Shown here in pieces: positions 8,614 through 52,381 of a DNA stretch of 64,000 nucleotides. Numbering within the stretch: the first letter of the stretch is position 1; each line of letters begins with the position of its first letter. Source of the DNA: an uncultured Acidobacteriaceae bacterium (GTDB taxonomy: Bacteria; Acidobacteriota; Terriglobia; Terriglobales; Acidobacteriaceae). The DNA lies in NCBI GenBank assembly GCA_963734675.1, contig CAVTHZ010000008.1:131513-195512 (forward strand), read 5' to 3'. The translations under genes were made by a program, and so were the position numbers. The notes below the pieces were generated by a model. That model was given only the letters and a program-made list of their open reading frames with translations. It did no database searches and was not told where the DNA came from.

Positions 8614-11600
8614 TTATTGGACGATTAAGGTCACGTTCATCGTGTGAACAGGCGCGCCATTGCCCGATCCGGTGGCAGTTACCGAAATGGTGTACTGGCC
8701 GGCAGGAGTACCAGGCGTGCTTCCGTTATTGTTGTTGTTCGAAGAGCTGCTCCCGCCGCAGCCCACCAAAGCGAACATAGTGATCAAGAGAGCGACTCCG
8801 AGAATCGCCATGTGCCCACGGCCACGCTTAGAGCCTGCGCTCACGAAGACCAGGCCGAAGAGGCCAAAGCCGCCGAGACTGGCCAGGAGCATGGGATCCG
8901 TCGGTTTCGAGTTGGGCAGCACGGGCGGGGTGAGCGACGCCGTGCTGGCCGCTGTAGTGGTCAGGGTGAGTGTAGTCGACGAATACGTTCCGTTCGATGG
9001 CGTCAACGATGCCGGGCTGAAGCTGCATCCCACCTTCGAAGGCAAGCTTGCCGGGCAGTTGAAGGCTACAGTGCCGTTGTAACCCCCGCTGGGGGTGATG
9101 TTGAAGGTATAAGTAGCTGACTTACCCGGAGTCACAGTCACCGACGGATTCAGCGTGCCGAAAGCGAAATCCGGAGTGGCCGTAATCACCTCGCTCAGGG
9201 CTGAAGACGTGCGCGCGTGGAAGTTGGCAGTGCCGCTATAGACTGCGGTGATGTTATGCGTACCGACGGCCAGTTTTGCGCTGGTGAAGGTAGCTACGCC
9301 GTTCGCCAGATTCGCGCTGCCCAACGTGGTGTTCCCATCGAGAAAGCTAACGGAGCCGGTTGGAATCGCGGTTACGCCGCGGACGTTCGCCGCAATCGTC
9401 GCGGTGAAAGTGACCGACGCGCCGAGAACAACGGGGTTCGCAGAAGACTTCAGAGCGTTGGAGCTGCCGGTAGCATTCAGCAAGACCGTCGCCCCAGCGT
9501 AGTTGTAGTTGGCGGTGACTACGTCCATTGCGCCGTCGTTGTTTACGTCAGCCAACGCAATCGCGTTAGCGGTGTAGTTTGCCGCACCGCTGCCAGCAGG
9601 AGTCTCAACCGGATCGTAGAACATTCCAGCCGCGAACAGGTTGGTGCCAGTGTTGTAGAGAACTCCGATCGTTCCGTAGCCGGAGTTGCTGTAGATCACG
9701 TCAAGCTTACCGTCGCCATTGAGGTCGAACATCTTGACATCGCCAGGTGTCGGCGGGACCAACAGGGCGTTCTGCAGAGTGGTGGAGAAAAGAACGGGCG
9801 TTTTGAACGTGCCGTCACCATTCCCCTGCGCGATCGCTAAGCCCTCGTTCGGTGCGACGTGATCGGCTACCGTGACAGCGATGTCCAGTTTGCCATCGCC
9901 CTTCAGATCGCCGAGAGCCACGTTACCCAGGTTGTTAAAGGCGAAAGTGGAAGTCTTGGCAGCCTGGAATGTTCCGTCGGAGTTTCCAAGAAAAACATCC
10001 ACGCCCTGATTGCTTTGCGGCACAACTAAGTCAAGGATGCCGTCGCCGTTTACGTCGGCTGCGGCGATACCAGTTCCGGTGCCGTTAGTGGCATAAGTCA
10101 CTGCGGTTCCGAAGTTGCCAGTGCCGTCGTTAAGCAGGACACTGATGTTGTTGCTTCCGGTGTTCACAATGGCAAGGTCAGGATGGCCATCGCCGTTGAA
10201 ATCGCCAGCAATGATTTTGAATGCATTCGTGCTGACGCCTGGGAAGAAGGTATTCGCTGGGAAGCTACCCTTGCCATTGCCGTAATAAATTTCCACACCA
10301 TTGTTGCTTTCGTTTACGGTGGCGATATCAAGATTGCCGTCGCCGTTGAAGTCAGCTACCGCAACGCCTTCAAACGATCCGCCTTTACCGAGGTTGATTC
10401 CCGGCTGCAAGCTGCCATCCGGGTTGGAGAGAAATACCGTGACGCCGATGCCGCTGCCATTCGGCGGATTGAAGCCGTAGTTGCCGACGACAAGATCGGG
10501 ATAACCATCACCGTTTAAGTCCCCGACGGCGATAGCGGTTGCACCAGCGCTAAAGCCTCCCGGAACCGGAGCGTAGAAATCCTGCGCGCCGCGAAAAGTG
10601 CCGTCGCCATAGCCTTGCAAATAGGCGAAACTGAAGTTGTCATCCGGAACCACGATGTCCGGGATCCCATCGCCATTCAAGTCTTGCACGATGGCTGAAG
10701 TCTTCGGTGTGCCTCCGGCGTTGTAGCCGACCGTGGGCACGTTGACCGTTCCATCGCCATTGCCGAGGAGCACAGTTACATCGCCGGCATCGTGATTGGA
10801 GACAACGAGGTCATTCTTTCCGTCGCCGTTTACATCGGCAATCGTAACCGCGAGAGGAGAAATGTTGGCAGCAGTGTTGTCGGTAGTTTCGGTTCCAGCC
10901 GAGTAGTAGACACCAGCCTTGAAAGTGCCGTCGCCGTTATTAACGTAAACCGTCAAGTTGCCCGCCGCGCCTGAGGCGCTGCAATTGGCGGCGATCAGCT
11001 CAGGTTTGCCATCGCCATTCAAATCACCGGCGGCGTTGTTGCAAATGTCATAGAGGCCATCGGGATTGGTGAGCGGAGTTCCGGCGACGAAAGTTCCATT
11101 GGCATGGCCGAGGTAAACGACATCTTGAGTGCCGGTAATTGCCGCAAAGTCGAGAATGCCGTCGCCATTGAAGTCGTCGAATATGACGTTCGAAACTTTG
11201 CTGCCGAGAGCCACGGATGTGGGCGCCTGGAAAGTGCCATCGCCGTTACCCAACAGAGTCCAGACATTGGCCGGAGTGTGCGCATCAACAAATACGAGAT
11301 CGAGATTGCCATCGCCATTAACATCGAACACCGCGCCGCCAACCAGGAAGTTTGCCGTGATCGTAGTGGGACCGGTGCTGGGCACAGTGAATGTGCCATT
11401 GCCAGTAGGAACCCACAGTTCGAACGTTGCCGGATTAGTGCCATGCACAACGATCAGATCCTGCTTGCCCGTGTTATGGAAGTCACCATACAACAACTGG
11501 TCGCCGTCGACGCCATTGGGATTCGGGATCAGCACGCCGGGCTGGAAGGTGCCATCGCCATTGCTAAGCGCGATCGAAATCGCGTAAGAGTTCGTGCTCC

Positions 11601-11934
11601 CTTGCACCGGCGCGGCCAGGTCAACGATGCCATCGTTGTTGAAGTCTGCAGCAATGGCCGACCATTGCGCGAGGCCGTTGGCCGGAATCTGCGTGCCACT
11701 CACAAATCCGACGGGATTGCCGATCGGGTTACTGCCGCTAACCAACGGCTTGCTGCGTGCCGCGTGCATTTTTGTGGTGGCGGACGGTGCTGCGCTGGCG
11801 TGCGCGGCTAGTTGCTTGGCCGTAGGCGCTGAGAATCGGCTTGAGGGGCCTGTGCCCGCCAGGAGCGGAATAGAGGCCAGCGCGAGGAACACAAAGGATG
11901 CAAGGAACTTCTTCATAGAGTTGAAACGCTCCAT
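8614..11934 (-). CDS. large secreted FG-GAP/VCBS repeat protein with Ig-like domains and an unusual two-helix C-terminal module
   Basis: 1106 aa with a signal peptide (MKKFLASFVFLALASIPLLAG). About 14 repeats of the type 'DFNGDGxxDLxV...NxVxVLLGNGDGTF'. Ig-like segments follow (VTFTATIAAN.., NITAVYSGT). See findings for the C-terminal module. Confidence 0.9.
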   Translation of the reverse strand: MERFNSMKKFLASFVFLALASIPLLAGTGPSSRFSAPTAKQLAAHASAAPSATTKMHAARSKPLVSGSNPIGNPVGFVSGTQIPANGLAQWSAIAADFNNDGIVDLAAPVQGSTNSYAISIALSNGDGTFQPGVLIPNPNGVDGDQLLYGDFHNTGKQDLIVVHGTNPATFELWVPTGNGTFTVPSTGPTTITANFLVGGAVFDVNGDGNLDLVFVDAHTPANVWTLLGNGDGTFQAPTSVALGSKVSNVIFDDFNGDGILDFAAITGTQDVVYLGHANGTFVAGTPLTNPDGLYDICNNAAGDLNGDGKPELIAANCSASGAAGNLTVYVNNGDGTFKAGVYYSAGTETTDNTAANISPLAVTIADVNGDGKNDLVVSNHDAGDVTVLLGNGDGTVNVPTVGYNAGGTPKTSAIVQDLNGDGIPDIVVPDDNFSFAYLQGYGDGTFRGAQDFYAPVPGGFSAGATAIAVGDLNGDGYPDLVVGNYGFNPPNGSGIGVTVFLSNPDGSLQPGINLGKGGSFEGVAVADFNGDGNLDIATVNESNNGVEIYYGNGKGSFPANTFFPGVSTNAFKIIAGDFNGDGHPDLAIVNTGSNNISVLLNDGTGNFGTAVTYATNGTGTGIAAADVNGDGILDLVVPQSNQGVDVFLGNSDGTFQAAKTSTFAFNNLGNVALGDLKGDGKLDIAVTVADHVAPNEGLAIAQGNGDGTFKTPVLFSTTLQNALLVPPTPGDVKMFDLNGDGKLDVIYSNSGYGTIGVLYNTGTNLFAAGMFYDPVETPAGSGAANYTANAIALADVNNDGAMDVVTANYNYAGATVLLNATGSSNALKSSANPVVLGASVTFTATIAANVRGVTAIPTGSVSFLDGNTTLGSANLANGVATFTSAKLAVGTHNITAVYSGTANFHARTSSALSEVITATPDFAFGTLNPSVTVTPGKSATYTFNITPSGGYNGTVAFNCPASLPSKVGCSFSPASLTPSNGTYSSTTLTLTTTAASTASLTPPVLPNSKPTDPMLLASLGGFGLFGLVFVSAGSKRGRGHMAILGVALLITMFALVGCGGSSSSNNNNNGSTPGTPAGQYTISVTATGSGNGAPVHTMNVTLIVQ

Positions 11935-13707: not shown

Positions 13708-15144
13708 ATGAATATTTTAAGAAAATTGTTCGAGGAACATTTTCACGGACCCGCTACTCGCGTGCTGCCCCTACAGGGTGAATTGGGCGGATCGGGGCGC
13801 AAAATCATCCGCTTGAGTAACGACGAGGCAAGCGCCATCGGGATTTTGTATGGCGTACGCGAGGAGAATGCGGCGTTTCTGGAATTCTCTAAACATTTTC
13901 TCGGGCACAATCTGCCGGTGCCGGAGATTTATGGCGAGGATCTGGATGAGGGAGCTTATCTGGAAGAGGATTTGGGCGACGTCACTCTATTCGACTTTCT
14001 TTCGAACAACCGACAAGGGGAGAACATCGCGCCTGTAGTAGGGGAGGCGTACCGGAAGGTCATAGCAGTGCTGCCCCGGTTTCAGATCGAAGCGGGGCGG
14101 GATTTGGATTACAGCAAGTGTTATCCACGGGCTAGTTTTGACCGGCAGTCGATTAATTGGGATTTGAATTATTTCAAGTATTACTTTTTGCGCCTGGCGG
14201 GGATTTCTTTTAGCGAGCAGGCGCTGGAGGATGATTTTGAGAGCCTGACGAATTTTTTGTTGAGCGCGGATCGCGATTACTTCATGTATCGCGATTTTCA
14301 GTCGCGCAATATTATGCTGCGCGGCGGCTCGCCATTTTTTCTTGATTATCAGGGAGGGCGCAAAGGAGCGTTGCAGTATGACGTCGCTTCCCTGCTCTAC
14401 GATGCCAAGGCGGATTTGCCGCCGGAGTTGCGGCAGCAGTTGCTGGATTTGTATATCGAGCGGGTGCAGGAATTCGTTCCACTTGAGCGCGAGAAGTTTT
14501 TGCATTACTTCTACGCCTACGTTTATGTGCGGATTTTGCAGGCGCTGGGGGCCTACGGGTTTCGCGGATTTTATGAGCGCAAGGCGCATTTTCTGCAGAG
14601 CGTGCCTTATGCGCTGAAGAATCTGCGCTGGTTGTTGCATAACGTGAAGCTGCCGATTGCTTTGCCGACGCTGATGGAGGCGTTCAATTCCATGCTGGCG
14701 TCGGAGAAACTGCAGGGGCTGGCTTCTTCGGGGGAAAATCTTAGGGTGCGAATTTTTAGTTTTTCATTTCATCGGGGTTGGCCTAAGGATGAAAGCGGAA
14801 ACGGCGGAGGGTTTGTTTTCGATGGGCGGAGCTTGCCGAATCCGGGGCGTGAAGAACGCTTTAAGGCTCTAACTGGAAAAGACGCTACGGTGATCGAGTA
14901 TTTGAATCAGCAGGAGAGCGTCCATCAGTTTCTGGCTAGTGTGATGTCGCTGGTGGATGCGAGCGTTCACAACTATCAACAGCGCGGATTTAAGGATTTA
15001 ATGGTTTCGTTTGGGTGTACGGGCGGCCAGCATCGGTCGGTGTATTTGGCGGAGCAACTGGCGAGGCATCTGCGGGCGCGGAGTGGAGTGGATGTGGTAG
15101 TAAAGCATCGGGAGTTGGAGGCGGCGGGTGGCGAGAATCAATAA
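13708..15144 (+). CDS. AmgK-like anomeric sugar kinase (APH-fold phosphotransferase) fused to a RapZ C-terminal domain
   Basis: The N-terminal ~330 aa is of the aminoglycoside-phosphotransferase/AmgK type (FMYRDFQSRNIML, LDYQGGRKGALQYDVASLL). The C-terminal ~130 aa aligns by eye with E. coli RapZ residues ~160-284 (FVFDGRSLPNPGR...LTGKD..V..YL...GCTGGQHRSVYLAEQLA). A MurU-like gene lies immediately downstream. Confidence 0.8.
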   Translation: MNILRKLFEEHFHGPATRVLPLQGELGGSGRKIIRLSNDEASAIGILYGVREENAAFLEFSKHFLGHNLPVPEIYGEDLDEGAYLEEDLGDVTLFDFLSNNRQGENIAPVVGEAYRKVIAVLPRFQIEAGRDLDYSKCYPRASFDRQSINWDLNYFKYYFLRLAGISFSEQALEDDFESLTNFLLSADRDYFMYRDFQSRNIMLRGGSPFFLDYQGGRKGALQYDVASLLYDAKADLPPELRQQLLDLYIERVQEFVPLEREKFLHYFYAYVYVRILQALGAYGFRGFYERKAHFLQSVPYALKNLRWLLHNVKLPIALPTLMEAFNSMLASEKLQGLASSGENLRVRIFSFSFHRGWPKDESGNGGGFVFDGRSLPNPGREERFKALTGKDATVIEYLNQQESVHQFLASVMSLVDASVHNYQQRGFKDLMVSFGCTGGQHRSVYLAEQLARHLRARSGVDVVVKHRELEAAGGENQ

Positions 15145-15166
15145 GGAAGGTCGCGTCGCGCTTTAT

Positions 15167-15248
15167 TGTCGTCCCGCTTCGCGGCACGACGCGCGGTCGC
15201 TCCCCCAGATCCTTCGGCGACGAAAACCGTGCCGCCTCAGGATGACAA
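15167..15248. repeat. GTCATCCTGAGCG-type palindromic repeat (degenerate) between amgK-like and murU-like
   Basis: TGTCGTCCCGCTTCGCGG...GATCCTTCGGCGACG...GCCGCCTCAGGATGACAA. It fills most of the 108-bp intergenic gap. Confidence 0.6.
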
Positions 15249-15252
15249 TGCA

Positions 15253-16011
15253 ATGAAGGCGATGATTTTGGCTGCGGGGCTGGGGACACGGTTACGGCCG
15301 CTGACCAATGATCGTCCGAAGGCGCTGGTGGAAGTGGGCGGGCGGGCGCTGCTGGAAATTACGCTGGCCCGGCTGCGCGAGTTTGGGATTCGCGAGGTAA
15401 TTGTGAACGTGCATCACTTCGCGGACATGGTCGTGGATTATCTGAAGGCGAATGACAATTTTGGAATGCGGATTGAAATTTCGCGCGAGGACGAGTTGCT
15501 CGATACCGGCGGCGGCTTGAGGAAAGCTGGGTGGTTTTTTCTGGAGAACTCTTCCGAACGCGAAGAACCATTTGTTTTGCATAACGTGGATGTGATCAGC
15601 ACGATTGATTTGAATCGCATGGTTGCGTTTCATCGGGAGCGTCGCGCGCTCGCTACGTTGGCAGTGCAGGAGCGGGAGACTTCGCGGTACTTGCTTTTTG
15701 ACGAGGGTGGGAGGCTGTGCGGGCGTCGAGCGGGACAGGATGGCAAGCTTGAGATTGTGCGGGGAGCGGAGGATGGATCTTTGCTGAGCGCGCTCGCTTT
15801 TTCGGGCGTACACGTTATTTCGCCACAATTTTTTTCTTTGCTGACGGAAGAGGGAGGGTTCTCCATCGTGGCAGCATATCTGCGACTCGCAGGTCAGGGA
15901 GAAAAAATCTGCGCGTTTCGCGCCGACGAATGCTACTGGCGCGATTTGGGACGGCCGGAGAATATTGCGCCGACGTCGCGGGATTTTCAGGCTAAAATTC
16001 TGTCCTTTTGA
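15253..16011 (+). CDS. sugar-1-phosphate nucleotidyltransferase, MurU-like (N-acetylmuramate-1-P uridylyltransferase)
   Basis: MKAMILAAGLGTRLRPLTNDRPKALVEVGG is the classic NTP-transferase N-terminus. Adjacent to the AmgK-like kinase. The ORF-track start at 15166 lies inside the repeat, so the start was moved to 15253. Confidence 0.8.
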   Translation: MKAMILAAGLGTRLRPLTNDRPKALVEVGGRALLEITLARLREFGIREVIVNVHHFADMVVDYLKANDNFGMRIEISREDELLDTGGGLRKAGWFFLENSSEREEPFVLHNVDVISTIDLNRMVAFHRERRALATLAVQERETSRYLLFDEGGRLCGRRAGQDGKLEIVRGAEDGSLLSALAFSGVHVISPQFFSLLTEEGGFSIVAAYLRLAGQGEKICAFRADECYWRDLGRPENIAPTSRDFQAKILSF

Positions 16012-17937: not shown

Positions 17938-18234
17938 ACTCGGCTCTAGACAACGATTTCGGGGGACGAATGCTAGATTGCCGGATGTCAGGGGACCAAC
18001 GACCTCGGCAAAGTGCAAGATACCACAGATTGATACCGTAACAATACCCCATGATTCTTGCACCCTCTTTCCGACCAAGGCATTCTTTCATGCCGACAGG
18101 CTCGTGGAGTGGGGCCCTGTAGGGGGCGCGACTAGCTATATGTGCAGTTTGTTGCGCACTCTCCCTGTTTCTACGCGGTTCGAACTTTGCAAAATCGACC
18201 GGGCTTCGAAGCACACCCTCTCAGGAGAATGAAA

Positions 18235-19170
18235 ATGAGAACGTTACAAATCATGCTATTACTCGGAACGATTTCGGTGGGAGTGGCACAGGCACAGTCG
18301 ATAACTTACTCGACCTTTTTGGTCCCTGAAGCCGCGCCGAACATGCTGAACGTACAGGGCATCAGCCGCTCCGGTGAGGTTGATGGATACTTGACCGACA
18401 CTTCTGGCAATCTGGAGGGATGGATTCGGGACAAGAACGGCGACATCACCCTGCTAGTCGATCCGCTGGATACGGGCACGCCGTCAGCGACCGTGGCTTA
18501 TGGTTTGAGTCCGTCGGGGATTGCAATCGGCTATTTCTTCGACACTTCGGCGAATCTCTACTATGGGTACTTTTACAGTGGAGGCAACTACCAGACTTAC
18601 AGTGTGCCTGATCAGCCATCGGGGACGGACACGACTGTGGGAGGGATCAGCAGCCCGGGAATGTTCTGCGGGTCTTTGCTTCAGCCTCCCTACACCACGT
18701 ACTTGAACTATGTGAGCATTAAGGGTCAAGTAACGGTTTTCCAGGTGGAAGGATCGAATGACGAAGATTGCCTCGGCATCAACAGCGCCGGCACCTCCGT
18801 CGGATCCTACGTCGATGATGCCGGGGTCGATCACGGATGGATACGTGACGTATCGGGGAAGGTCACGACGGTCAATGTGCCGGCTGCATCCACGACTGCG
18901 GGTACGGCTCCGTGCATATCTGGCATTGTCGGCGGCACGACGATAAATGGCATCAACGATCAGGGATTTATTTCAGGCCATTATTGGGACAGGAAGTATA
19001 ACGAGCATGGGTTCATCCGCACTCCGAGCGGGAAATTTATCACACTGAATGTCCCCGGGGCATACCAGACGGGAGGAGGCAGCATTAACGCCAACGGGGA
19101 GATGGTCGGTCATTGGGCCACCGATACTTCCTGCGATGACCAAGGTTTTATCGCTACCATCAATCAGTAG
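18235..19170 (+). CDS. secreted repeat protein (HAF-like 'GIN..G..VG' repeats)
   Basis: Signal peptide MRTLQIMLLLGTISVGVAQAQS. Repeated motifs: GLSPSGIAIGYF, CLGINSAGTSVGSY, INGINDQGFISGHY, SINANGEMVGHW. AGGAG lies 7 nt before the ATG at 18235. Confidence 0.65.
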   Translation: MRTLQIMLLLGTISVGVAQAQSITYSTFLVPEAAPNMLNVQGISRSGEVDGYLTDTSGNLEGWIRDKNGDITLLVDPLDTGTPSATVAYGLSPSGIAIGYFFDTSANLYYGYFYSGGNYQTYSVPDQPSGTDTTVGGISSPGMFCGSLLQPPYTTYLNYVSIKGQVTVFQVEGSNDEDCLGINSAGTSVGSYVDDAGVDHGWIRDVSGKVTTVNVPAASTTAGTAPCISGIVGGTTINGINDQGFISGHYWDRKYNEHGFIRTPSGKFITLNVPGAYQTGGGSINANGEMVGHWATDTSCDDQGFIATINQ

Positions 19171-19221: not shown

Positions 19222-20281
19222 GGGTTAGCTGTGATCTATCAAGACGTTGTACCCACCGGAGCGCGGCTGATAGGTGGAGCGTAACCGAGACTACCATGCG
19301 GGCGGTGGAGGTTGTAGTGCTCCAGCCAGGGTAAGAGTTGCTGATCGCGTTCTTCTGAGTTGCGGTAGTGGCGAACGTAAGCCCACTCGCGCAAGGCGGT
19401 TTGGATGAAGCGTTCGGCCTTGCCGTTGGTGCGCGGAGTGTAGGGACGTGTGAAGCGGTGCTGGATGCCGAGTTCAAGGCAAGCAGCGCGAAAGTGGCGG
19501 GAGCGATAGCAGGAACCGTTGTCGGTGAGCAGGCGGCGAATGGGGATGCCGAGCTGGGCATAGAAGGCGACGGCGGCCTGCAGAAAGGCGATGGCGGTTT
19601 GGTTTTGCTGGTTGGGCAGCATGCGGGAGAAGGCGAGGCGGGAGTGATCGTCGATGGCGACGTGCAGCGCCTGCCAGCCGGCGAACTGAGGGCGGCCGCG
19701 ACGGCGGCCGTCGCCGCGAATAGAGACCTGCTGATAACGAGTCATGCCCTTGATATCGAGGTGGAGCAGATCGCCGGGAGCGGGATGTTCGTAACGCACG
19801 ACGGGCGGAGCGGGATGGAGATGACGCCAGCGGTTGAGATGAGCGCGCCGAAGAATGCGGCTGACGGTGGCGGCGCTGAGGTGAGTGGATTGGGCGATCT
19901 GATAGGCGGGCTGCAACTGGCGGCGCAGTGCGATGACCTGCGCCGTCAACTCCGAGGAGGTTTGGCGCGGGCAACGGAGAGGCCGCGAAGAACGATCGCG
20001 CAATCCAGGCAAGCCCAAGGTGCGGTAGCGGCGAAACCACTTCGCAGCGGTTTTTCGGCTGACCTGGAAGGCGGCTGCAGCCGCCTTCAATGTCAGCCTC
20101 TCCATCATGATCTTATGGGCTAAAGCCTCTCGACAGCGAAAACTAAGTCGGGCATTCTGGTGAAGGTCCATCCGATCGACTCCTGGGAAGCGGATTGGTC
20201 AGCACCATCAGCTTCTCCGGTCTTGCTCGAATGGACTATTCACTTCTTGGGAACAACGTGTTGAAAGACCACAGTTAGCCC
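19222..20281 (-). mobile_element. IS481-family insertion sequence, apparently intact (~1.06 kb)
   Basis: Imperfect terminal inverted repeats, about 26/32 matches: GGTTAGCTGTGATCTATCAAGACGTTGTACCC (19223-19254) versus the reverse complement of 20249-20280 (GGCTAACTGTGGTCTTTCAACACGTTGTTCCC). They enclose a single DDE transposase ORF. Confidence 0.85.
19239..20171 (-). CDS. IS481-family DDE transposase
   Basis: 310 aa with an N-terminal HTH (LTLKAAAAAFQVSRKTAAKWFRRY). Integrase core: HLDIK...VAIDDHSR...LLTDNGSCY...TRPYTPRTNGKAERF. Confidence 0.9.
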   Translation of the reverse strand: MDLHQNARLSFRCREALAHKIMMERLTLKAAAAAFQVSRKTAAKWFRRYRTLGLPGLRDRSSRPLRCPRQTSSELTAQVIALRRQLQPAYQIAQSTHLSAATVSRILRRAHLNRWRHLHPAPPVVRYEHPAPGDLLHLDIKGMTRYQQVSIRGDGRRRGRPQFAGWQALHVAIDDHSRLAFSRMLPNQQNQTAIAFLQAAVAFYAQLGIPIRRLLTDNGSCYRSRHFRAACLELGIQHRFTRPYTPRTNGKAERFIQTALREWAYVRHYRNSEERDQQLLPWLEHYNLHRPHGSLGYAPPISRAPVGTTS

Positions 20282-40323: not shown

Positions 40324-42465
40324 TTATGTCTGAATGATTCGCGGCGTGATGAAGAAGATGAGCTCCTGATTTTCGGTATTTACAGTCGTATGTTTGAACA
40401 GGTTGCCGAGGATCGGAATATTTCCAAGCACGGGCACCTGGTCGATGTTGATTGAGTTCTGCGTCTGGATCACGCCGCCGATCACCACCGTACCGCCGTC
40501 GGTGACGAGCACCTGAGTGGTGGCCTGCTGCGTAATCAGTTCGGGGTTGCCCTGCACTTCCTGTCCGAAGTTCGGGGTGGTGTTTTCCACGTCAACATTC
40601 AGGAAGATCGTGTTTTCCGAGGTAATTTGCGGAGTCACGGTTAAGCGCAGGAACGCGTCTACATAAGTGACCGTTGGCGGACCGCCCAACTGCGCCTGAG
40701 TCACGATTGGTACGCGGACGCCCTGTTTCACAAGCGCTTGAATGTTGTTCTGCGTGACCACTCGCGGACGCGAAAGAACTTTGAGCAAGCCGCGCGATTC
40801 AGCCATTGAAAGCACGGCATCGATTCGCACGGTATTGCTGGCATTGAGGAGCGTGAAGCCGCTGGTTGGCGAGGTCACGCCCAGGTTCGAGAACAGTGGG
40901 ATGGTCGATCCCGTAGTGGTACCGGTGCCCGGCAGCGTGATATAGCCGGGGGTCAGTCCGTTGACCGTTGTCGGAGAAGTACCGGCGGTCGCGTTTCCAC
41001 CGATAGCGCTGTGCCCATTGCCCCATCCGAAGCCGAGCTGCGTGCCGATGTCGCGGGCAAACTGTCGAGTTGCGGCTACGACGCGAGCTTCGATTTCCAC
41101 TTCCTGGGTCTTACGATCAAGCTGCGTCAGGAGGCGGTCGATGACCGGAATCACCTTCGGGATATCGTTAACGATGACGGCATTGGTACGCTCATCGGCG
41201 ACCACATCGCCACGCTGCGAGAGGAACTTCTTCACAGTTGCGATGGCATCCTTGGCGTGAGCGTAGCTGAGGAAGCGGGTAACGGAAACTTTTTCGACCG
41301 CCATGGCTTCCGCTTCTACCTGCGCGCGCCGGGCATCAGCTTCTTTCTTGAGCGTGTCGACGGTGGCGATGCGAAGAACGTTGCCTTCTAGTTCGCGGGC
41401 CAGATCGTTGTTCTTGAGCACGATGTCCAGAGCCTGATCCCACGGTACGTCATCGAGAACGATCGTCAGAGTGCCGTGAACATTAGGATCGAGCACGATG
41501 TTCAGACCGCTGATTTCGTGGATGAGGCGGAAGAAATCTTTCAAGTCGACATCTTTCAGGTTCACCGAGATCGGCTCGCCTGTGTACTTGGGACCAACCG
41601 AAGCAGGCTGCTGTCCAGATTGCGCTCTCTGTTCGGCGGCAAGATTGACCGCGGGCTGAAAACTAGGGGCCGCAGCGTTGCTTTGGGCCGACATCTGCGC
41701 ATTTTCGCTGACGGGCAACAGCTCGGGAGCAGTCTTGTCCGCAAACTTTGCGGCAGCTTCCTGGGCGCGGTCTGCGGGCTCAGCAGTGGCAGCGCTAGCG
41801 GAAGCGGCAGGGTTAGCTTTAGGCGTGTACGTTGGTTCGACGAATACAAAATCGTTGGAGGCGGCTGGAGCAGTCGCAGGGGCTGCAGCCGGCGCTGAAT
41901 TTTTCGTCTCGACATTCGCGCTCGGGGCCTTGACCTCGATTACGCGAGCGGCGAAAGGAGAAGGCTGCCTGGTCATCTGAACAGTGGCAACGTCGGCAAC
42001 CGTGGTTTTCGCAAGCGGCTTGGAAGCAGGGGCAGCGCTGGCGATAGTGTTGGACCCATGCAGAGTGAGCACCAGCTGGCCATCAGCGGAGGGCGCGAGC
42101 TCATAGCGGCAAGAGTGCTCGAGATCCACGACGACACGCGTGGTGGGCGGATTCTGGCCGTCCATGCCGATGCGCACTTCTTTCACGTCGGCACTGCCCA
42201 CGGTGATGTGGCTTTGACGCGTAGCCATGATCGTCCCGGGCAGATCCACGATTAAACGCTTCGGGGAATCCGCCGTGGACAGCTTTGGCGTCACCGTGCC
42301 GCGCGCATTGATGACGACGCGGATTTCATCCGCGCCGCGCACCACACTGACGCGCTGCAGCTCGTTTCGTTGGCCCGCCGCCGGCGCAGCCGGGGTGTCT
42401 GTAGCTGAAGCCATCAGCCCAGTGAGCAGCAACGATAGGAATACACTCAGCAGTTGCTTTCGCAT
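40324..42465 (-). CDS. pilQ: type IV pilus secretin PilQ (AMIN domain plus secretin)
   Basis: Signal peptide, AMIN-like N-domain (RVSVVRGADEIRVVINARG...LIVDLPGT), Ala/Pro-rich linker, STN/secretin N-domains, and C-terminal secretin motif VPVLGNIPILGNLFK. Confidence 0.9.
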   Translation of the reverse strand: MRKQLLSVFLSLLLTGLMASATDTPAAPAAGQRNELQRVSVVRGADEIRVVINARGTVTPKLSTADSPKRLIVDLPGTIMATRQSHITVGSADVKEVRIGMDGQNPPTTRVVVDLEHSCRYELAPSADGQLVLTLHGSNTIASAAPASKPLAKTTVADVATVQMTRQPSPFAARVIEVKAPSANVETKNSAPAAAPATAPAASNDFVFVEPTYTPKANPAASASAATAEPADRAQEAAAKFADKTAPELLPVSENAQMSAQSNAAAPSFQPAVNLAAEQRAQSGQQPASVGPKYTGEPISVNLKDVDLKDFFRLIHEISGLNIVLDPNVHGTLTIVLDDVPWDQALDIVLKNNDLARELEGNVLRIATVDTLKKEADARRAQVEAEAMAVEKVSVTRFLSYAHAKDAIATVKKFLSQRGDVVADERTNAVIVNDIPKVIPVIDRLLTQLDRKTQEVEIEARVVAATRQFARDIGTQLGFGWGNGHSAIGGNATAGTSPTTVNGLTPGYITLPGTGTTTGSTIPLFSNLGVTSPTSGFTLLNASNTVRIDAVLSMAESRGLLKVLSRPRVVTQNNIQALVKQGVRVPIVTQAQLGGPPTVTYVDAFLRLTVTPQITSENTIFLNVDVENTTPNFGQEVQGNPELITQQATTQVLVTDGGTVVIGGVIQTQNSINIDQVPVLGNIPILGNLFKHTTVNTENQELIFFITPRIIQT

Positions 42466-42560
42466 TTCGCCTCTCCCAGACTCGCGGGTCTGCCCCGCGG
42501 GTCCCTTGCCAGAATTCGTCTTTCGCGGCGCTCCGGTTTCCCTCGCGCCTTTATTTCCAA

Positions 42561-43529
42561 CTAAACAGCCGGCGTAGAGATTCGCTTGACAACTTCACGC
42601 GTCAGCGCTTTGCCCAGCTGGTCCGTATAAGTTTCCTGGAACACAACCGTGTCGCCGGTAATGCGCACAACGTAACCGTTAAATACGGGATCGTTTTCCC
42701 GCAGGAAATATGCTTTGCCCAGATTGTTCGTGACCACCGCAATGAAGCCGCTATCGGACTTCACCACGCCATGCAGATTGATCGAGCCGATTTCGAGACA
42801 TTTTTTGCCAGTGGAGCAACCTGAGCCTGTCGGCTGCTGTACCACCGGGCTGAAGAACGGATCACGCTTGCCGTTCATCGCCCACTTTTTCTCCTCGGGC
42901 TTGGGTGGCTTGGCCGCTTCGGCAGTCTTGGCTACGACGACTGGAGCTGTCTCGGCCGGAGCTTTCGGCGCGGCGGAAATCACGGTTTTTTCATGTTTCT
43001 TCTCGCCGGGCTTCGCAGTTCCCTTCGGACTCGCTGCAACGCTTATCTTCTCGGCGGGTTTTGCACTTGCACTTACTTTTACGGCCGGCTTCGCAGTTGC
43101 ATTCGTGCTTATCCCCACGACCGGCTTCACGCTTGCCTTCGTGCTGGCTTTACTCGCCACTTGCTTTACAGCCACCGTTTTGGGTTCTGCGTGCTTGTCC
43201 GCAACTGCAGTCTTGGGAGCCACCGCACCAGACTTGCTTGCCGGGGCAGCCCCTTGTGCTTTCGCGGGCGCGGCAGCCGGAGCAGGAGTATTTTTGGCGG
43301 CCGAAGGCGCTGCCGGATTTGCAGCCTTCGCGGGAGCACCCGGGGCAGGCTTCGCTGCTTGATTTGGACTCGACGCGTTCTTGATCCCCAGGGCAGCATT
43401 TGAATCGGTCGTTTTCTGCTGCTGCACCGAGTTCATGGTGTTCTGCACGCTTTGGATGACGTTCGGATTCTGTGCCCAGAGTTCGCCCGCCATCAATCCC
43501 ACTGCGAGAAGTGTTGTCGTTAGCTTCAT
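42561..43529 (-). CDS. pilP: PilP-like pilus assembly lipoprotein with a ~200-aa Ala/Pro/Lys-rich insertion
   Basis: Signal peptide, long low-complexity AKP-rich region, and a C-terminal PilP-type beta domain (GKRDPFFSPV...INLHGVV...AVV......YFLRENDPVFNGYVVRITGDTVVF). Confidence 0.7.
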   Translation of the reverse strand: MKLTTTLLAVGLMAGELWAQNPNVIQSVQNTMNSVQQQKTTDSNAALGIKNASSPNQAAKPAPGAPAKAANPAAPSAAKNTPAPAAAPAKAQGAAPASKSGAVAPKTAVADKHAEPKTVAVKQVASKASTKASVKPVVGISTNATAKPAVKVSASAKPAEKISVAASPKGTAKPGEKKHEKTVISAAPKAPAETAPVVVAKTAEAAKPPKPEEKKWAMNGKRDPFFSPVVQQPTGSGCSTGKKCLEIGSINLHGVVKSDSGFIAVVTNNLGKAYFLRENDPVFNGYVVRITGDTVVFQETYTDQLGKALTREVVKRISTPAV

Positions 43530-43537
43530 AGCGATTC

Positions 43538-44176
43538 CTATTTGGCTCCGGGCGCTTTGGCTCCCGGCCCAGCACCGGCCGGCTCCAGGTCGTGACTGAA
43601 GAATGTAGTTGCGGTGAAAGTCGCGACCACACTCTCATTCGGCGCGTACTGATATGTATGCTTGGCTTTGGCGTCCGCCGGATTTTTCGTATTCCCGACC
43701 ATCAATCCGCTGATGTTCACGATGCGCTCGAGTTTGCCGACGCGATCGAAGAAGTTCAGCATCGAGTAGTAGGGTCCATCTAATTCCATGTCGAATGGAA
43801 GCTCGGAGTAATAATCCCTGGCGGCGACGGGCTTTGCGGTGTATCGGCGAAGTTCCACGCCGGCTTTCTGCGCTTCCCCGTCCATGGTCTGGATGAAGGT
43901 ATCGACATCCTTGTCGTCAGGAACGATGCGCCGCTCGATTTCGAGCTGCTGCTTCAGGTTGGCGAGCTGGCGTTCCATATCCTTGAGCTTGGGACGATAG
44001 GATTCGAGTTCGTTGTTTTCCCGAACCTTCGTCTGTAAGGCTGTTTGCGCCGTCGCATTCTTGTCACTCATGCTCTTGAACATGGTGAAGTACAGTGCCG
44101 CGGTCACAATTGCCCCGCCGGCAAGCACTGCGCCCCACTGCTTCAAGCCCGAGAGTTCGCTGAAATTGATCGCCAT
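43538..44176 (-). CDS. pilO: type IV pilus assembly protein PilO
   Basis: Single N-terminal TM helix, a coiled coil (LANLKQQLEIERRIVP) and a ferredoxin-like C-domain. Position between pilN and pilP. Confidence 0.8.
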   Translation of the reverse strand: MAINFSELSGLKQWGAVLAGGAIVTAALYFTMFKSMSDKNATAQTALQTKVRENNELESYRPKLKDMERQLANLKQQLEIERRIVPDDKDVDTFIQTMDGEAQKAGVELRRYTAKPVAARDYYSELPFDMELDGPYYSMLNFFDRVGKLERIVNISGLMVGNTKNPADAKAKHTYQYAPNESVVATFTATTFFSHDLEPAGAGPGAKAPGAK

Positions 44177-44187
44177 AGGTCTATTCC

Positions 44188-44781
44188 TTACGACTTTCCC
44201 TTCACGCAGCTGAGTGTGAACTGAAAGGCCTGCATGTCTTTAATCGTGTCGTCCTGAAAGGTCTCTTTCATTTCCACACTCGAGAAGAATCCGGTCTTTT
44301 GCAGATTGCCAATCAGATTAGCCACCGCATCGGTGCTCAGAGCGGTGCCTTCCACGTTCAAGCTCGGTCCGGTGTCATCCATTTTGCGCAGCCAAACCGC
44401 TTCGGTGCCGTTGACGGTTTCACCCATCATGGCCAGCAGATTCACCGGGCCAGCCTGGCCGTCGCGGAGCTTATCGATCACATCAACGCGCCGCTTGTAG
44501 TTGTCGGCCTGGCGTTGACGCTCGAGGAAGCGCGCCTTGACGTCGCTGAGTTCGCGATTCTTCAGTTCGGCAGCCTGCATTTGCTGTGCGATGCTTTTGC
44601 CCTGCCGGTCAAGCCGGTACCAGTAACCGAAATTGATGACGCCCGCGACCAGCAAAATCACGAGCACCTTGAGCTTGGGCGAGCCAAGGTCGCCCATCTC
44701 CATGCTTGGCATCGAGGGACCGCCGCCGCCGGCGCGCTTGCCCTTGCTCTTTGCCGTTTCGAGAAGATTGATTTTGATCAT
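44188..44781 (-). CDS. pilN: type IV pilus assembly protein PilN
   Basis: MIKINLLE N-terminus (the PilM-binding motif), one TM helix, and a 4-nt overlap with the pilM stop. Confidence 0.85.
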   Translation of the reverse strand: MIKINLLETAKSKGKRAGGGGPSMPSMEMGDLGSPKLKVLVILLVAGVINFGYWYRLDRQGKSIAQQMQAAELKNRELSDVKARFLERQRQADNYKRRVDVIDKLRDGQAGPVNLLAMMGETVNGTEAVWLRKMDDTGPSLNVEGTALSTDAVANLIGNLQKTGFFSSVEMKETFQDDTIKDMQAFQFTLSCVKGKS

Positions 44782-45833
44782 AGGGATTCAAAGCTCCTCA
44801 AAGCCAAGCCCACAGCCACAGCCAGCTGGCCGGGATTCTGCTCCACCAGTTGCACGCCCGGACCTTCCGCGGGCGGCACAACGCGCTGAAACGGATTCAA
44901 CAAATCCACCGGCATCGAGAACTCCTGCCGCAGCGCTTCCATCAAGCCGGGAACTTTTGCCGAGCCGCCGGCCAGATAGATTTTCTCGATGTGCTCGCCA
45001 GCCGCGCTGGCGCGGAAGAAATCGAACGTCTTTTGAATTTCGAGCACGATGATTTCCGTCACTTGTTGCAGGATCGGCCCCTTTGCGTCTTCGCTGACCG
45101 TTCCCACTTTCTCGCCGAGCTTTAACTTCTCGGCATCATCAAAATTGAGATCGAGTTCCTTCTGGAGCGAGTCCGTGTACTGATGGCCGCCGACGCTGAC
45201 GTCGCGGGGGAAGAGCGGCGTTGTGCCCTTGACGATATTGATGTTCATGACGCTGGCGCCCAAGTTCAGCAGCGCCACCACCTGGCCCGGCGCCGGCTGG
45301 TAGTTGTACTCGTAGCAGTTCTGCAGCGCCAACGCGTCGATATCGACAATAGCCGGGGTCCGGCCTGCCATCGAGAGTACGTTGGTGTAGTTCAAAATCT
45401 TGTCCTTCTTCACGGCGACCAGCAGAACGTCCATCTGCGGGCTGCCCGGCTCTTCGGAAAGAATCTGATAGTCGAGGCTGACATCGGCGAGATCGAAGGG
45501 AATGTGCTGCGCAGCTTCTTTTTCGATAGTTTCGGCGAGTTCCTGATCGCTCATCGAAGGCAGCGAGATCTTTTTCACGATGACCGAGTGTCCGCTGACT
45601 GCGGTAGCGACTGCTTTCGTCTTGATGAGGCAATCGGTGAACAGTTTGGCGATCGCACTCGAGACGGTGCCCGAGTCGACAATCATTGAGTCGACAACGA
45701 TGTCGGAGGCCAGCGGCTCGAGGCCCAAATGAGAGACTTCGATGTTGCCGCCCTTCTTTCTCAACTCCACCGCCTTAATGCTCGAAGAGCCCACATCCAG
45801 ACCTACAATCGACTTCGATCCCATTCCAAACAT
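44778..45833 (-). CDS. pilM: type IV pilus assembly ATPase-like protein PilM (actin-like fold)
   Basis: IVGLDVGSSSIKAVEL..., GASVMNINIV, LAGGSAKVPGL are actin/FtsA-like motifs. Start set at MFGMGSK. Confidence 0.9.
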   Translation of the reverse strand: MFGMGSKSIVGLDVGSSSIKAVELRKKGGNIEVSHLGLEPLASDIVVDSMIVDSGTVSSAIAKLFTDCLIKTKAVATAVSGHSVIVKKISLPSMSDQELAETIEKEAAQHIPFDLADVSLDYQILSEEPGSPQMDVLLVAVKKDKILNYTNVLSMAGRTPAIVDIDALALQNCYEYNYQPAPGQVVALLNLGASVMNINIVKGTTPLFPRDVSVGGHQYTDSLQKELDLNFDDAEKLKLGEKVGTVSEDAKGPILQQVTEIIVLEIQKTFDFFRASAAGEHIEKIYLAGGSAKVPGLMEALRQEFSMPVDLLNPFQRVVPPAEGPGVQLVEQNPGQLAVAVGLALRSFESL

Positions 45834-49102: not shown

Positions 49103-52100
49103 ATGAGAATTGTTTGCCCCCTTTCTGCGCCCGAGTTGCGGAGCGCAGCGCTTCCCGCCGTTGTGACATTTTTCGTAATTATTGGCATGGCTTCGCCTGC
49201 GATGGCCCAGAGCAGCGGCGCAGTGCCGCATCCTTTGATCGAACAGGCGATCGACGAATCGCAACTCACAGTGTTGAAGGGCAACACGCATCCGCTGGCG
49301 AAACCGCAATTTGACCTCGGGATTGCGCCGGCCACGCTTCCCATGGAGCGCATGCAACTGGTGCTGAAGCGCAGCGCGGGCCAGGAATATGCGCTGCGGA
49401 AGCTGCTTGATGACCAGCAAGATAAACATTCGTCCAACTATCACAGGTGGCTGACGCCGACGCAGTTTGGCCAGCAGTTTGGACCGACGGACGCCGATAT
49501 TCAGACGATCACCGGGTGGCTACAATCGCACGGATTTCAGGTTGGCACGACAAAAGGCCGGACGGTGCTGGAGTTTTCCGGTTCGGCGAGCCAGGTGCAG
49601 GAAGCATTCCACACTGCGATTCACAAATACATTGTGAATGGTGAGCAGCATTGGGCAAATGCCAGCGATCCTTCGATCCCGACCGCGCTGACGCCAGCTG
49701 TAGCGGGAGTGCTGACGCTGCACAATTTTCTGAAGAGGCCAACAATTCGATTCACTAAACAGACTTATCCAGGAAAGATTCGACCCGGCAAACGGCCGAG
49801 CATCACCTTCAGCGATGGGTCGCATGGGATGGCGCCGCTGGATTTTGCCACGATCTATAGCAGCTCAGCTTATGCTGGCGGAGGTACGGGCGGCGGTGTC
49901 ATTATTGGAGTGATTGGGCGCAGTGATGTTTTCAATTCCGGGGCTGATATATCGGATTTTCGATCTTCGCAGATATTCAACGTTTGCTGCGGGAATTTCA
50001 CCACTATCGTCAACGGGGCGGACCCTGGCGACCTTGGCGGGGGCGAGGAAGTGGAGGCTACGCTGGACAACACATGGTCTGGTGCGGTTGCTCCGGCGGC
50101 GAATGTCGACTTTGTAGTTTCCGCTACGACCAACACAGCTGACGGAATCGACCTCTCTGAAATCTACATCATTGAAAATAATCTCGCCGACATCATGACA
50201 GAGAGCTTCAGTGGATGCGAGGCTGGTAGCACAAGCGCCGAGGCGGCTGGAGTTTCGGCTTTGGCCGAGCAGGCTGCGGCACAGGGTATCACTTATTTCG
50301 TTTCAACGGGAGACGCCGGGGCGGAAGGATGCGATGATCCGAATTCGGAAACGGTGGCGCAGGGACCGATTTCTGTAAACCTGCTGGCCGCTACCCCCTT
50401 CAATGTCGCGGTGGGCGGGAACGTTTTCAACGACACTGCTGATCCGACGAAATACTGGAGCACTACGAACACCAATCAGGAAAGCGCGCTTTCATACATT
50501 CCAGAGAATGTGTGGAATGACAGTTGCACGTCGACGGCTTGCGGAGCCAATGCCAACATCGCAGCGGGCAGTGGCGGGCAGAGTGCGTTTTTCACGAAGC
50601 CGGCGTGGCAGCAGGTAACTTATACGGGAATTCAGCTGTCAGACAACACGCGCGATTTGCCGGATGTCTCTCTGACTGCCGATGTACATGATGGGTATGT
50701 GCTCTGCCTGGACGCTTCCTGTGAGCCCAATTCGCAGGGAGAATTCTCTCTTTATCTGGTTGGCGGGACGTCTGCATCGGCACCCTCGTTTGCTGGAATT
50801 ATGGCGCTGGTGGATAGCGAGTTCGCGAGCGCAAATCCAGCTCTGGGTCCACGGCAGGGTCTAGCGAATTACGGTTTGTATAGGCTTGCGGCAGCGCAGG
50901 AGAATTCTATTCTTTCCGAATGCAATGGATCGAGCACTACCACCCCGCCGGCAAGCAATTGCATTTTCAACGATGTGACCGTAGGCAACAATGCGGTTCC
51001 GGGAGAAGTCAATTACGGCTCGCCGACGGCACAATTTCAGGCTGGGGTAGGCTACGACATGGCGAGCGGACTGGGGTCGGTCAATATTAGTAATTTAGTG
51101 GCGCAGTGGAGCTCGTTTACGTTCAATCCGACAACTACGATGCTTACGCTTGGACAGTTGACTGGAATTGTTCATGGGACATCGGTGAGCGTGAATGTCA
51201 CAGTTGCTCCGAGCAGCACCGGGGGCCCAAGTTCGATGCCAACTGGTGACGTTTCTTTGCTGACTGTGCCGAATCAGAATAATTGTTCGCAACCACCGAT
51301 GACCACGCTGGGATTCTTCACTCTGACGCCCGGAACGACAAATTCCACGATCGTTTCCTCGATTAGCGATCTCCCCGGCGGTAACTATAACGTATGTGCC
51401 TATTACAGCGGCGATACGAACTATTCTGGCGGCACGTCCGGCACTCAGCTAGTGACGGTGACCGCGCAGTCGAGCGCAACCGCTTTGTCCGTACTGTCGT
51501 TCGATTCGAACGGCAATCAATTCAACTTTACTGGCGGACCCTTTGGCAGCTTTGTTTACTTGCGCGCCGATGTTTCCGGGACTCCTCCTCCTGCGCAGGG
51601 CACGCCCACGGGATCGGTTACCTTCACCGATGCTTTTGGAGCCATCCCCGGCGGCGGCACGTATCCGCTGAATTCGGGGGATCAATTCCAAAACGGAAGC
51701 AACACCGCCACGCCAAACGGAATATTGACCTTCGACACTGGCAGGCACAGTATCTCGGCCAGTTACATCGGCGATGCGAGTTTCACCCCCAGCACTAGCA
51801 CGCCGGCGATATCCTTCTCTATTACCCCTGGATTTTTTGCTTCAATCGCGACGGCGCAGTCGACCGTATTAGTTTCCGCGCCGGGGAGTTCCGGGACGAC
51901 CTCTGTGTCGGTTGCCTGGTCCACAGGATTCAGCGGGGCGATCAGCCTGTCCTGTACGGGCCTTCCGACGGGAGCAAACTGTGCATTTAGTCCGGCATCG
52001 TTTCAGGGATCGGGCAAGCTGTCGACAGCTAATAGTTCCACCATCACCGTGACAACCACCGCAGCGACCACGGCCGTGGTACCGCCAGCGGGACCCAGCA

Positions 52101-52381
52101 CGTATACTCGCTCGCTGGCCTTCGGAGGCCTTATGCTGTTTTCGATGGTGCTGATTGGCCTCCCGGTGCGGCGGCGCTCGTCGGTTCTTCTTGGTGTGAT
52201 CCTCGGCGTGATTCTGTTTGCCCCGGCATGCGGAGGAGGCAGCAGCAACAGTGGAGGAGGGACGCAGACCAACGCACCACCACCTCCCACGCCGACTTCG
52301 GCGGGGAATTACAACATTACGGTGAACGCGACCAGCGGCTCTTCAACATACCAGACGGGTTTCACGCTGGTGGTGCAGTAG
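49103..52381 (+). CDS. secreted S53 (sedolisin/kumamolisin-like) serine peptidase with Ig-like domains and the same C-terminal two-helix module as 8614-11934
   Basis: Signal peptide and pro-kumamolisin activation domain (LVLKRSAGQEYALRKLLDDQQDKHSSNYHRWLTPTQFGQQFGP...ITGWLQSHGF). Catalytic Ser motif GGTSASAPSFAGIMALV. Several Ig-like segments follow (NVCAYYSGDTNYSG, ISASYIGDASF). Confidence 0.85.
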   Translation: MRIVCPLSAPELRSAALPAVVTFFVIIGMASPAMAQSSGAVPHPLIEQAIDESQLTVLKGNTHPLAKPQFDLGIAPATLPMERMQLVLKRSAGQEYALRKLLDDQQDKHSSNYHRWLTPTQFGQQFGPTDADIQTITGWLQSHGFQVGTTKGRTVLEFSGSASQVQEAFHTAIHKYIVNGEQHWANASDPSIPTALTPAVAGVLTLHNFLKRPTIRFTKQTYPGKIRPGKRPSITFSDGSHGMAPLDFATIYSSSAYAGGGTGGGVIIGVIGRSDVFNSGADISDFRSSQIFNVCCGNFTTIVNGADPGDLGGGEEVEATLDNTWSGAVAPAANVDFVVSATTNTADGIDLSEIYIIENNLADIMTESFSGCEAGSTSAEAAGVSALAEQAAAQGITYFVSTGDAGAEGCDDPNSETVAQGPISVNLLAATPFNVAVGGNVFNDTADPTKYWSTTNTNQESALSYIPENVWNDSCTSTACGANANIAAGSGGQSAFFTKPAWQQVTYTGIQLSDNTRDLPDVSLTADVHDGYVLCLDASCEPNSQGEFSLYLVGGTSASAPSFAGIMALVDSEFASANPALGPRQGLANYGLYRLAAAQENSILSECNGSSTTTPPASNCIFNDVTVGNNAVPGEVNYGSPTAQFQAGVGYDMASGLGSVNISNLVAQWSSFTFNPTTTMLTLGQLTGIVHGTSVSVNVTVAPSSTGGPSSMPTGDVSLLTVPNQNNCSQPPMTTLGFFTLTPGTTNSTIVSSISDLPGGNYNVCAYYSGDTNYSGGTSGTQLVTVTAQSSATALSVLSFDSNGNQFNFTGGPFGSFVYLRADVSGTPPPAQGTPTGSVTFTDAFGAIPGGGTYPLNSGDQFQNGSNTATPNGILTFDTGRHSISASYIGDASFTPSTSTPAISFSITPGFFASIATAQSTVLVSAPGSSGTTSVSVAWSTGFSGAISLSCTGLPTGANCAFSPASFQGSGKLSTANSSTITVTTTAATTAVVPPAGPSTYTRSLAFGGLMLFSMVLIGLPVRRRSSVLLGVILGVILFAPACGGGSSNSGGGTQTNAPPPPTPTSAGNYNITVNATSGSSTYQTGFTLVVQ

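Follow-up and report, generated by a model that had tools for sequence, protein, structure and literature searches.

The stretch of DNA analyzed here (the window, 64,000 nucleotides) originates from an uncultured Acidobacteriaceae bacterium (contig CAVTHZ010000008.1, positions 131,513 to 195,512) and encodes two large, otherwise unrelated secreted proteins that end in the same C-terminal module. The two genes, which we refer to as carrier 1 and carrier 2, were assigned by reading of the open reading frames (ORFs) and by comparison with Pfam and NCBIfam models:

8614..11934, minus strand: carrier 1, whole ORF, FG-GAP repeat protein of 1106 residues
49103..52381, plus strand: carrier 2, whole ORF, S53 (sedolisin-type) peptidase precursor of 1092 residues

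The Pfam matches of carrier 1 are FG-GAP_3 (E 9.6e-92) and one Big_3_5 immunoglobulin (Ig) domain. Carrier 2 matches the Pro-kumamolisin activation domain (Pro-kuma_activ, E 1.1e-27) and Big_3_5 domains. Since a sedolisin-type serine motif, GGTSASAP, was read in addition to the activation domain, the protein was classified as S53-like. Both carriers have a Sec-type signal peptide at the N-terminus. Their last ~185 residues aligned collinearly (BLASTP E 9e-11, 29% identity over 175 residues), and the preceding ~900 residues showed at most a weak Big_3_5 Ig similarity (E 0.001). The order of elements is the same in both C-termini: a strand with the pattern T.T.TTTA is followed by a hydrophobic helix and an Arg/Lys patch, then by a second helix whose last residue is Cys, by a Gly/Ser/Pro linker, and by a β-tail of ~25 residues with VQ before the stop codon. 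A preliminary description of the window had proposed that two unrelated large secreted proteins share a C-terminal module with this arrangement. The alignment and a common match to the NCBIfam model NF058595 bear out both the sharing and the order, and the C-termini were quoted exactly. No Pfam model exists for the tail of either carrier, and a hidden Markov model of the two tails revealed no third carrier among all six-frame ORFs of the window.

Both tails match NF058595.1 ('invert_tail', NCBIfam release 20.0), which is described as 'lipo-invert putative C-terminal anchoring domain-containing protein'. The model has 113 positions and a curated cutoff of 37 bits. Carrier 1 scored 83.7 bits (E 1.1e-23, residues 986-1106) and carrier 2 scored 69.2 bits (E 3.6e-19, residues 978-1092), in each case over model positions 2-113 and up to the last residue of the protein. 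All 45 long homologues tested against the model matched as well. The module is already known as a catalogued family, for which NCBIfam gives the function as putative; the window carriers show all testable features of the family and none that sets them apart. The preliminary description had recognized no described sorting domain, adding that a match to a defined family would make the module known rather than novel. With scores well above the cutoff, known is what it is. Full-text literature searches found no paper or experiment on the family. Searches on internal lipoboxes, internal lipoprotein signals and lipobox sorting signals of Acidobacteria returned nothing relevant, and the papers found for 'choice-of-anchor' had no bearing on the lipo-invert module.

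The ~25-residue tail had been described as a conserved element of the module. It is not a separate domain: it consists of the last two β-strands of a terminal Ig-like domain that starts upstream of the first helix. This domain is interrupted after its sixth strand by an insert of 65-80 residues, composed of a Pro-rich tether, a first transmembrane helix (TM1), a basic loop, a second transmembrane helix (TM2) with a lipobox Cys, and a Gly/Ser/Pro linker. To delineate the parts we used a spliced-domain profile of 107 positions, obtained by cutting the insert from tether to linker out of the alignment, together with hhalign and an AlphaFold2 model whose confidence is given by the predicted local distance difference test (pLDDT):

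8944..9174, minus strand: carrier 1, six N-terminal strands of the split Ig-like domain, with two conserved Cys (residues 921-997, PDFAF...TLTLTTTAAS; AlphaFold2 pLDDT >90, spliced-profile positions 2-81, hhalign)
8896..8943, minus strand: carrier 1, Pro-rich tether from the Ig strand to TM1 (residues 998-1013; sequence reading)
8830..8895, minus strand: carrier 1, TM1, putative stop-transfer helix (residues 1014-1035, PMLLASLGGFGLFGLVFVSAGS; AlphaFold2 helix at model residues 96-111)
8812..8829, minus strand: carrier 1, basic loop KRGRGH, predicted to be cytoplasmic (residues 1036-1041; family loop length and charge)
8758..8811, minus strand: carrier 1, TM2, putative internal lipoprotein-type signal helix ending in LVG-C (Cys1059 at 8758-8760; Cys conservation)
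8701..8757, minus strand: carrier 1, Gly/Ser/Asn/Pro linker after the Cys (residues 1060-1078; AlphaFold2 pLDDT <50, model residues 140-148)
8617..8700, minus strand: carrier 1, final two β-strands of the split Ig-like domain (residues 1079-1106, GQYTISVTAT...VTLIVQ; AlphaFold2, spliced-profile positions 75-107, hhalign)
8614-8616, minus strand: carrier 1, stop codon
51827..52069, plus strand: carrier 2, N-terminal part of the split Ig-like domain (residues 909-989; spliced-profile positions 3-82, 76 bits)
52070..52303, plus strand: carrier 2, whole insert, falling between the two spliced-profile fragments
52070-52111, plus strand: carrier 2, tether
52112-52168, plus strand: carrier 2, TM1
52169-52183, plus strand: carrier 2, RRRSS loop
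52184-52228, plus strand: carrier 2, TM2 ending in APA-C (Cys1043 at 52229-52231)
52232-52303, plus strand: carrier 2, Gly/Ser/Pro linker
52304..52378, plus strand: carrier 2, final two β-strands of the split Ig-like domain (residues 1068-1092, GNYNITVNAT...FTLVVQ; spliced-profile positions 79-107)

The lipobox Cys, residue 1059 of 1106 in carrier 1 and 1043 of 1092 in carrier 2, is thus internal and not N-terminal.

Every carrier was matched by the spliced-domain profile in two pieces, one of positions ~3-80 before the first helix and one of positions ~78-107 at the very end of the protein. The uninterrupted form of the domain also occurs in the family. The carrier at locus L005 has two contiguous full-length copies directly upstream (residues 867-962 and 964-1069), and in 17 module carriers of the retrieved set 1-11 tandem copies are contiguous, whereupon the last copy is always split at position ~79-81. 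When a profile built from contiguous copies only was compared with the module profile by hhalign, the two aligned (99.5%, E 3.3e-23, columns 2-105 versus 4-188) with a single gap of ~80 columns that corresponds exactly to the insert. This tandem domain of Terriglobia, with the consensus PDF..C..C..TLTV..GTYTxTVT, has no Pfam model at threshold. Spliced carrier sequences gave only sub-threshold Ig-like matches in Pfam, and the contiguous-domain profile gave only weak Ig-like matches among PDB sequences (E >= 0.027). The two Cys of the upstream Ig half are invariant in the family alignment, which would fit a disulfide bond within an exported domain.

For structure prediction the last 186 residues of carrier 1 were submitted to AlphaFold2 with a 44-sequence alignment. 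The model contained 8 strands, of which the six upstream ones had a pLDDT >90 and the two tail strands (model residues 159-169 and 176-185) a pLDDT of 93-96. The helices, at residues 96-111 and 119-137, were modelled with a pLDDT of 56-79, and the linker was disordered (<50). In a control from which the upstream Ig half was omitted the tail strands fell to 77-81 and no residue reached 90. Foldseek alignments with Ig/MSP/ASH-type domains were weak (E ~4e-3); because domains of ~100-125 residues spanned ~180-200 query columns, these alignments bridge the insert. The reading as a split Ig-like domain goes beyond the sequence definition of NF058595, although it may already stand in the comment of its curators.

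These results bear on the outcome that was originally suggested for the module, in which LspA releases an autonomous small lipidated tail domain, so that a large protein and a small lipoprotein have independent fates. Conservation of the lipobox, described below, favors such a release as much as it favors the mechanism that we prefer, and the length of the tail after the Cys is tightly constrained (median 45 residues). However, contiguous Ig-like copies contain the homologue of the tail as their closing pair of strands, and the tail gains AlphaFold2 confidence only together with the upstream Ig half. A two-strand peptide is also unlikely to fold independently, and the six-strand half would stay incomplete. 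We therefore read the proposed small tail domain as the two closing strands of the Ig-like domain upstream and consider its independent release very unlikely.

The Cys at the end of TM2 was invariant in the 44 aligned sequences. It was present in 182 of the 187 retrieved proteins; four of the five exceptions match only via repeated Ig tail strands, and the fifth, P0074, reads VVGC-DNDSS and has a Cys there too. Position -1 is Gly, Ala or Ser in 178 of these 182 carriers (98%). Leu is the commonest residue at position -3 (86 carriers), the remainder being mostly hydrophobic, and the core of a PS51257-like lipobox is satisfied by 149 carriers. After the Cys a GG(G)S sequence is nearly invariant, with Gly at both +2 and +3 in 174 cases, and Gln is the last residue of 143 proteins. 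An invariant Cys, a small residue at -1 and a Leu-rich -3 position are recognition determinants of Lgt and LspA. Measured against the pattern [LVI][ASTVI][GAS]-C, LVG-C of carrier 1 is canonical and APA-C of carrier 2 is not, as had been noted in the preliminary description, but the Pro at -2 recurs in the family (14 of 182).

The surroundings of the Cys are conserved as well. The stretch between the last charged residue and the Cys has a median length of 18.5-19 residues (5-95%: 15-21), within the ~7-22 residues typical of the h-region in lipoprotein signal peptides, and the uncharged stretch of TM1 has a family median of 22 residues. The loop between the helices has 3-10 residues (median 6) and a median net charge of +4 (5-95%: +2 to +6), against a mean of 0.2 Lys/Arg in the 20 residues following the Cys, which is a positive-inside charge pattern. 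A segment consisting of loop, TM2 and tail still matched NF058595 at 61 bits when isolated, and weakly resembled the signal regions of the N-terminal lipoprotein models LytA, LppK, YgdI/YgdR and LptM. A crude screen of the fetched Terriglobia loci gave 34 N-terminal lipoprotein candidates, 5 of them with C-GG[GS], a count that is illustrative and not statistical. The preliminary description had likened the basic patch and second helix to an internal lipoprotein signal peptide. The invariant Cys, the small residue at -1, the dominance of Leu at -3 and the charge of the loop all speak for this likeness, and the idea of a putative internal-lipobox anchor is well supported by conservation in the family and agrees with the name 'lipo-invert' chosen by the curators.

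The membrane segments could also act as a plain helical hairpin that is neither lipidated nor cleaved and tethers the Ig loop to the inner membrane, with the Cys and the GGGS sequence retained for helix capping, flexibility or redox reasons. Two transmembrane helices with a positive loop suffice for anchoring, the h-region is of transmembrane length with its median of 19 residues, and both Ig halves lie on one side of the membrane, so the domain can fold uncleaved. Left unexplained by such a hairpin are the invariant Cys, the Gly, Ala or Ser at -1 in 98% of the carriers and the Leu-rich position -3; N-terminal lipoproteins of the Terriglobia loci, moreover, show a similar C-GGG/S start. On balance we find a purely helical anchor rather unlikely.

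The first helix and the basic patch had further been compared to a PEP-CTERM or sortase-type sorting signal. In that case a dedicated enzyme would free the passenger by cleavage of a signal of the PEP-CTERM/exosortase, GlyGly-CTERM/rhombosortase or a similar type, with or without processing at the lipobox. The generic architecture of a transmembrane segment followed by Arg/Lys fits, and some homologues have P-E-P or G-G just ahead of the first helix, such as P0005 with 'HPEPLNLLASLGG'. The passengers, too, bear 'choice-of-anchor' domains, which elsewhere are paired with such signals. The resemblance nevertheless stays generic. Models for PEP-CTERM, GlyGly-CTERM, LPXTG and other sorting signals gave no match at threshold, either with whole proteins (E up to 1) or with isolated helix-1 segments (E up to 10), the best match of the latter being VPLPA-CTERM at 12.4 bits versus a cutoff of 25.35. 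The unit is not C-terminal, as ~70 residues lie beyond the basic cluster in both carriers, and the tether region before TM1 is variable and poorly conserved in the family alignment. Beyond local synteny of orthologous loci there was no conserved neighboring gene at the fetched loci that could encode a processing enzyme, and no sortase-like gene occurred among the conserved neighbors. Cleavage by a dedicated sortase is therefore highly doubtful.

The mechanism that we consider moderately probable from these sequence features is that of a topology-inverted lipoprotein signal. The passenger would be exported by its N-terminal Sec signal until TM1, acting as an out-to-in stop-transfer helix, returns the chain to the cytoplasmic face. 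As a consequence TM2 would re-emerge N-in/C-out, oriented like an ordinary lipoprotein signal peptide. Diacylglycerol would then be added to the Cys by Lgt, and LspA would cleave in front of it. The lipidated tail of ~45 residues would provide the last two strands of the Ig sandwich and, since these strands belong to that sandwich, would remain bound to the passenger; the even number of helices would place both Ig halves on the same side of the membrane. The outcome would be a giant periplasmic or surface protein that is held to the membrane at its C-terminal end by the hairpin and the lipid. No dedicated sortase would be needed, which fits the absence of a conserved neighboring gene at the fetched loci. 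The 'invert' in the NCBIfam name presumably refers to the inversion of topology by TM1. The host is a diderm, as the window encodes LpxD (52494-53501, plus strand) and a PilQ secretin (40324-42465, minus strand).

Several observations weigh against this mechanism. The lipobox of carrier 2 is non-canonical because of its Pro at -2, and the h-region, with a median of 19 residues, is rather long for a substrate of signal peptidase II. The packing of the tail strands into the Ig half is predicted from pLDDT values, the truncation control and the Foldseek spans, not from inter-strand contacts. Our literature searches found no published or experimental support for lipidation or cleavage of the module, and we know of no characterized case in which Lgt and LspA act on a signal that follows ~1000 translocated residues. 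Furthermore, since the cleaved passenger would stay covalently attached to the hairpin of TM1, loop and TM2, the mechanism explains neither what the lipid would add nor where the protein finally resides (inner membrane, outer membrane or cell surface). An extended route might involve a cut by LspA, a strand-complemented lipidated tail, a second cut that removes the hairpin, and Lol transfer of the resulting non-covalent 'C-terminal lipoprotein' anchor to the outer membrane or the surface. Such a new sorting route, with the split Ig-like domain as its functional core, is unlikely in our view; if true, it would be specific to the Terriglobia and would let them display large enzymes and adhesins with no need for a dedicated sortase.

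A profile search for further carriers, as the preliminary description had recommended, revealed that the module is not confined to the two window proteins. A module profile of 24 sequences, compared with 1.84 billion cluster representatives (50% identity), retrieved 13,476 proteins at E <= 1e-3, of which 4,876 had an E <= 1e-10. With few exceptions the 150 best matches covered the full profile and were located at the extreme C-terminus. In addition, one genome per species from 185,579 species was scanned with a degenerate DNA pattern for C-G-G-G ... T-P-A-G-T-Y. At least 120 loci matched, and 111 of the 120 listed contain a true full-length module. Among these listed matches the module is essentially confined to the class Terriglobia of the Acidobacteriota, to which 110 of the 111 true loci belong; Acidobacteriaceae, Acidisarcina, Terracidiphilus, Ca. 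Sulfotelmatobacter, Ca. Acidoferrum and Ca. Angelobacter are represented. Among the carriers is one of the cultured strain Acidobacteriaceae bacterium KBS 83 (locus L090, scaffold KB906737.1, 3473-7369), which ends in ...GIVGC-GGGSDNGG...VTVQ. Matches to the pattern in Chitinophaga and Verrucomicrobia were without the module. Of 116 genomic module matches listed, 111 stop no more than 2 residues from the stop codon.

The sole true carrier outside the Acidobacteriota among the 111 loci listed (L132, contig JAXMGQ010000053.1, 1987-4410, plus strand) has an FG-GAP passenger and is part of a metagenome-assembled genome labelled Steroidobacteraceae (Gammaproteobacteria). It could reflect a mis-binned contig or horizontal transfer. 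Five loci (L023, L040, L072, L110 and L126) have two module genes each within 8 kb, some of them directly adjacent, which suggests local duplication or clustering.

The size of the family also bears on the question of whether the likeness arose by chance or from low complexity, or whether an assembly or gene-fusion artefact joined an anchored protein to a small lipoprotein gene downstream. The region is compositionally biased (Thr, Ser and Gly-rich), and in some members, among them carrier 1 (GH-M-AILGV), a Met closely follows the basic patch. However, thousands of independent carriers have the elements in identical order and spacing, the internal Met is not conserved, being absent from carrier 2 and many others, and both domain halves match one contiguous domain. 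An explanation by chance or artefact is thus practically negligible. Since the internal Met is not conserved, we also rejected an internal translation start for a separate small lipoprotein.

The passengers to which the module is attached are diverse and include FG-GAP, S53 and S8 peptidase, NHL, SBBP, Kelch, sortilin/BNR and TIG proteins, as well as ASH/Cep192-type Ig arrays. Full-length carriers have a Sec-type signal peptide at the N-terminus. Many of the 45 long carriers also contain NCBIfam 'choice-of-anchor' domains (D in 11, Z in 6, GloVer in 3 and X in 1), and these domains elsewhere accompany other envelope anchors. The suggestion that the C-terminus serves as an anchoring or processing signal gains from this finding of a modular C-terminal element on unrelated passengers. 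The Terriglobia belong to the most abundant bacteria of soils, and their display of large enzymes and adhesins is poorly understood. As the module occurs on thousands of distinct giant secreted proteins, among them peptidases, β-propellers and Ig arrays, this class probably uses it as a major route of anchoring to the envelope.

Compared with N-terminal lipoprotein signals (Lgt/LspA/Lnt; PS51257) the module likewise combines a positively charged n-region with an uncharged h-region, and it has a lipobox (small residue at -1, invariant Cys) and a mature start that is flexible and Gly/Ser-rich. It differs in that the signal is internal, ~45 residues from the C-terminus and behind ~1000 exported residues, and in that it alone needs a preceding stop-transfer helix for its orientation. 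Moreover, the putatively lipidated piece is a two-strand peptide and not a functional protein.

PEP-CTERM/exosortase, PGF-CTERM/archaeosortase A, LPXTG/sortase and eukaryotic glycosylphosphatidylinositol (GPI) systems resemble the module as C-terminal units of a transmembrane segment and basic residues on diverse secreted passengers. The presumed outcome is also alike, a C-terminal end held in the envelope, in some of these systems by a lipid, and 'choice-of-anchor' passenger domains are shared as well. In contrast to all four, the module has no signature motif, no match to their models and no terminal helix, and a dedicated transpeptidase is neither implied nor found nearby. Its lipid would sit on a separate chain and not on the C-terminus of the passenger. 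In chaperone-usher pili, split domains are assembled by donor-strand complementation. By analogy, the Ig-like fold of the module would be finished by strands that, after cleavage, belong to another polypeptide. The module differs from this system in that it is made as one chain that can fold before cleavage, with no chaperone and no polymerization.

If the internal lipobox is used, the Lgt/LspA pathway would extend to C-terminal, topology-inverted signals, and a natural two-chain Ig domain joined by strand complementation would result. The module is catalogued and apparently uncharacterized, and its split-domain architecture suggests an anchoring mechanism that is testable and possibly unusual. 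For annotation, NF058595 already covers the module, and the tail should be read as part of an Ig-like domain.

Apart from the carriers, the following genes of the window were noted:

13708-16011, plus strand: 478-residue protein with an APH-type kinase domain fused to a RapZ C-terminal domain, directly followed by a nucleotidyltransferase (NTP_transferase)
18142-19170, plus strand: 342-residue secreted repeat protein with no Pfam match and no module
19239-20171, minus strand: 310-residue IS481-family transposase ORF with LZ_Tnp_IS481, HTH and rve integrase core domains
40324-45863, minus strand: type IV pilus assembly cluster, with a PilQ-type secretin containing an AMIN domain (40324-42465) and PilM (44778-45863)
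52494-53501, plus strand: LpxD, directly downstream of carrier 2
53505-54242, minus strand: acyltransferase ORF, following LpxD

The repeats of the 342-residue secreted protein are also found in the passenger region of the module carrier at locus L006 (BLASTP E ~1e-11). LpxD and the acyltransferase ORF represent lipid A/envelope lipid genes, and an antisense ORF that overlaps LpxD (52362-53414, minus strand) is probably spurious. In the pilus cluster the ORFs between PilQ and PilM are probably pilN/O/P. The IS481-family element is a mobile element amid an otherwise housekeeping region. The kinase/nucleotidyltransferase pair resembles sugar recycling genes of the AmgK/MurU type; the fusion to a RapZ C-terminal domain is unusual.

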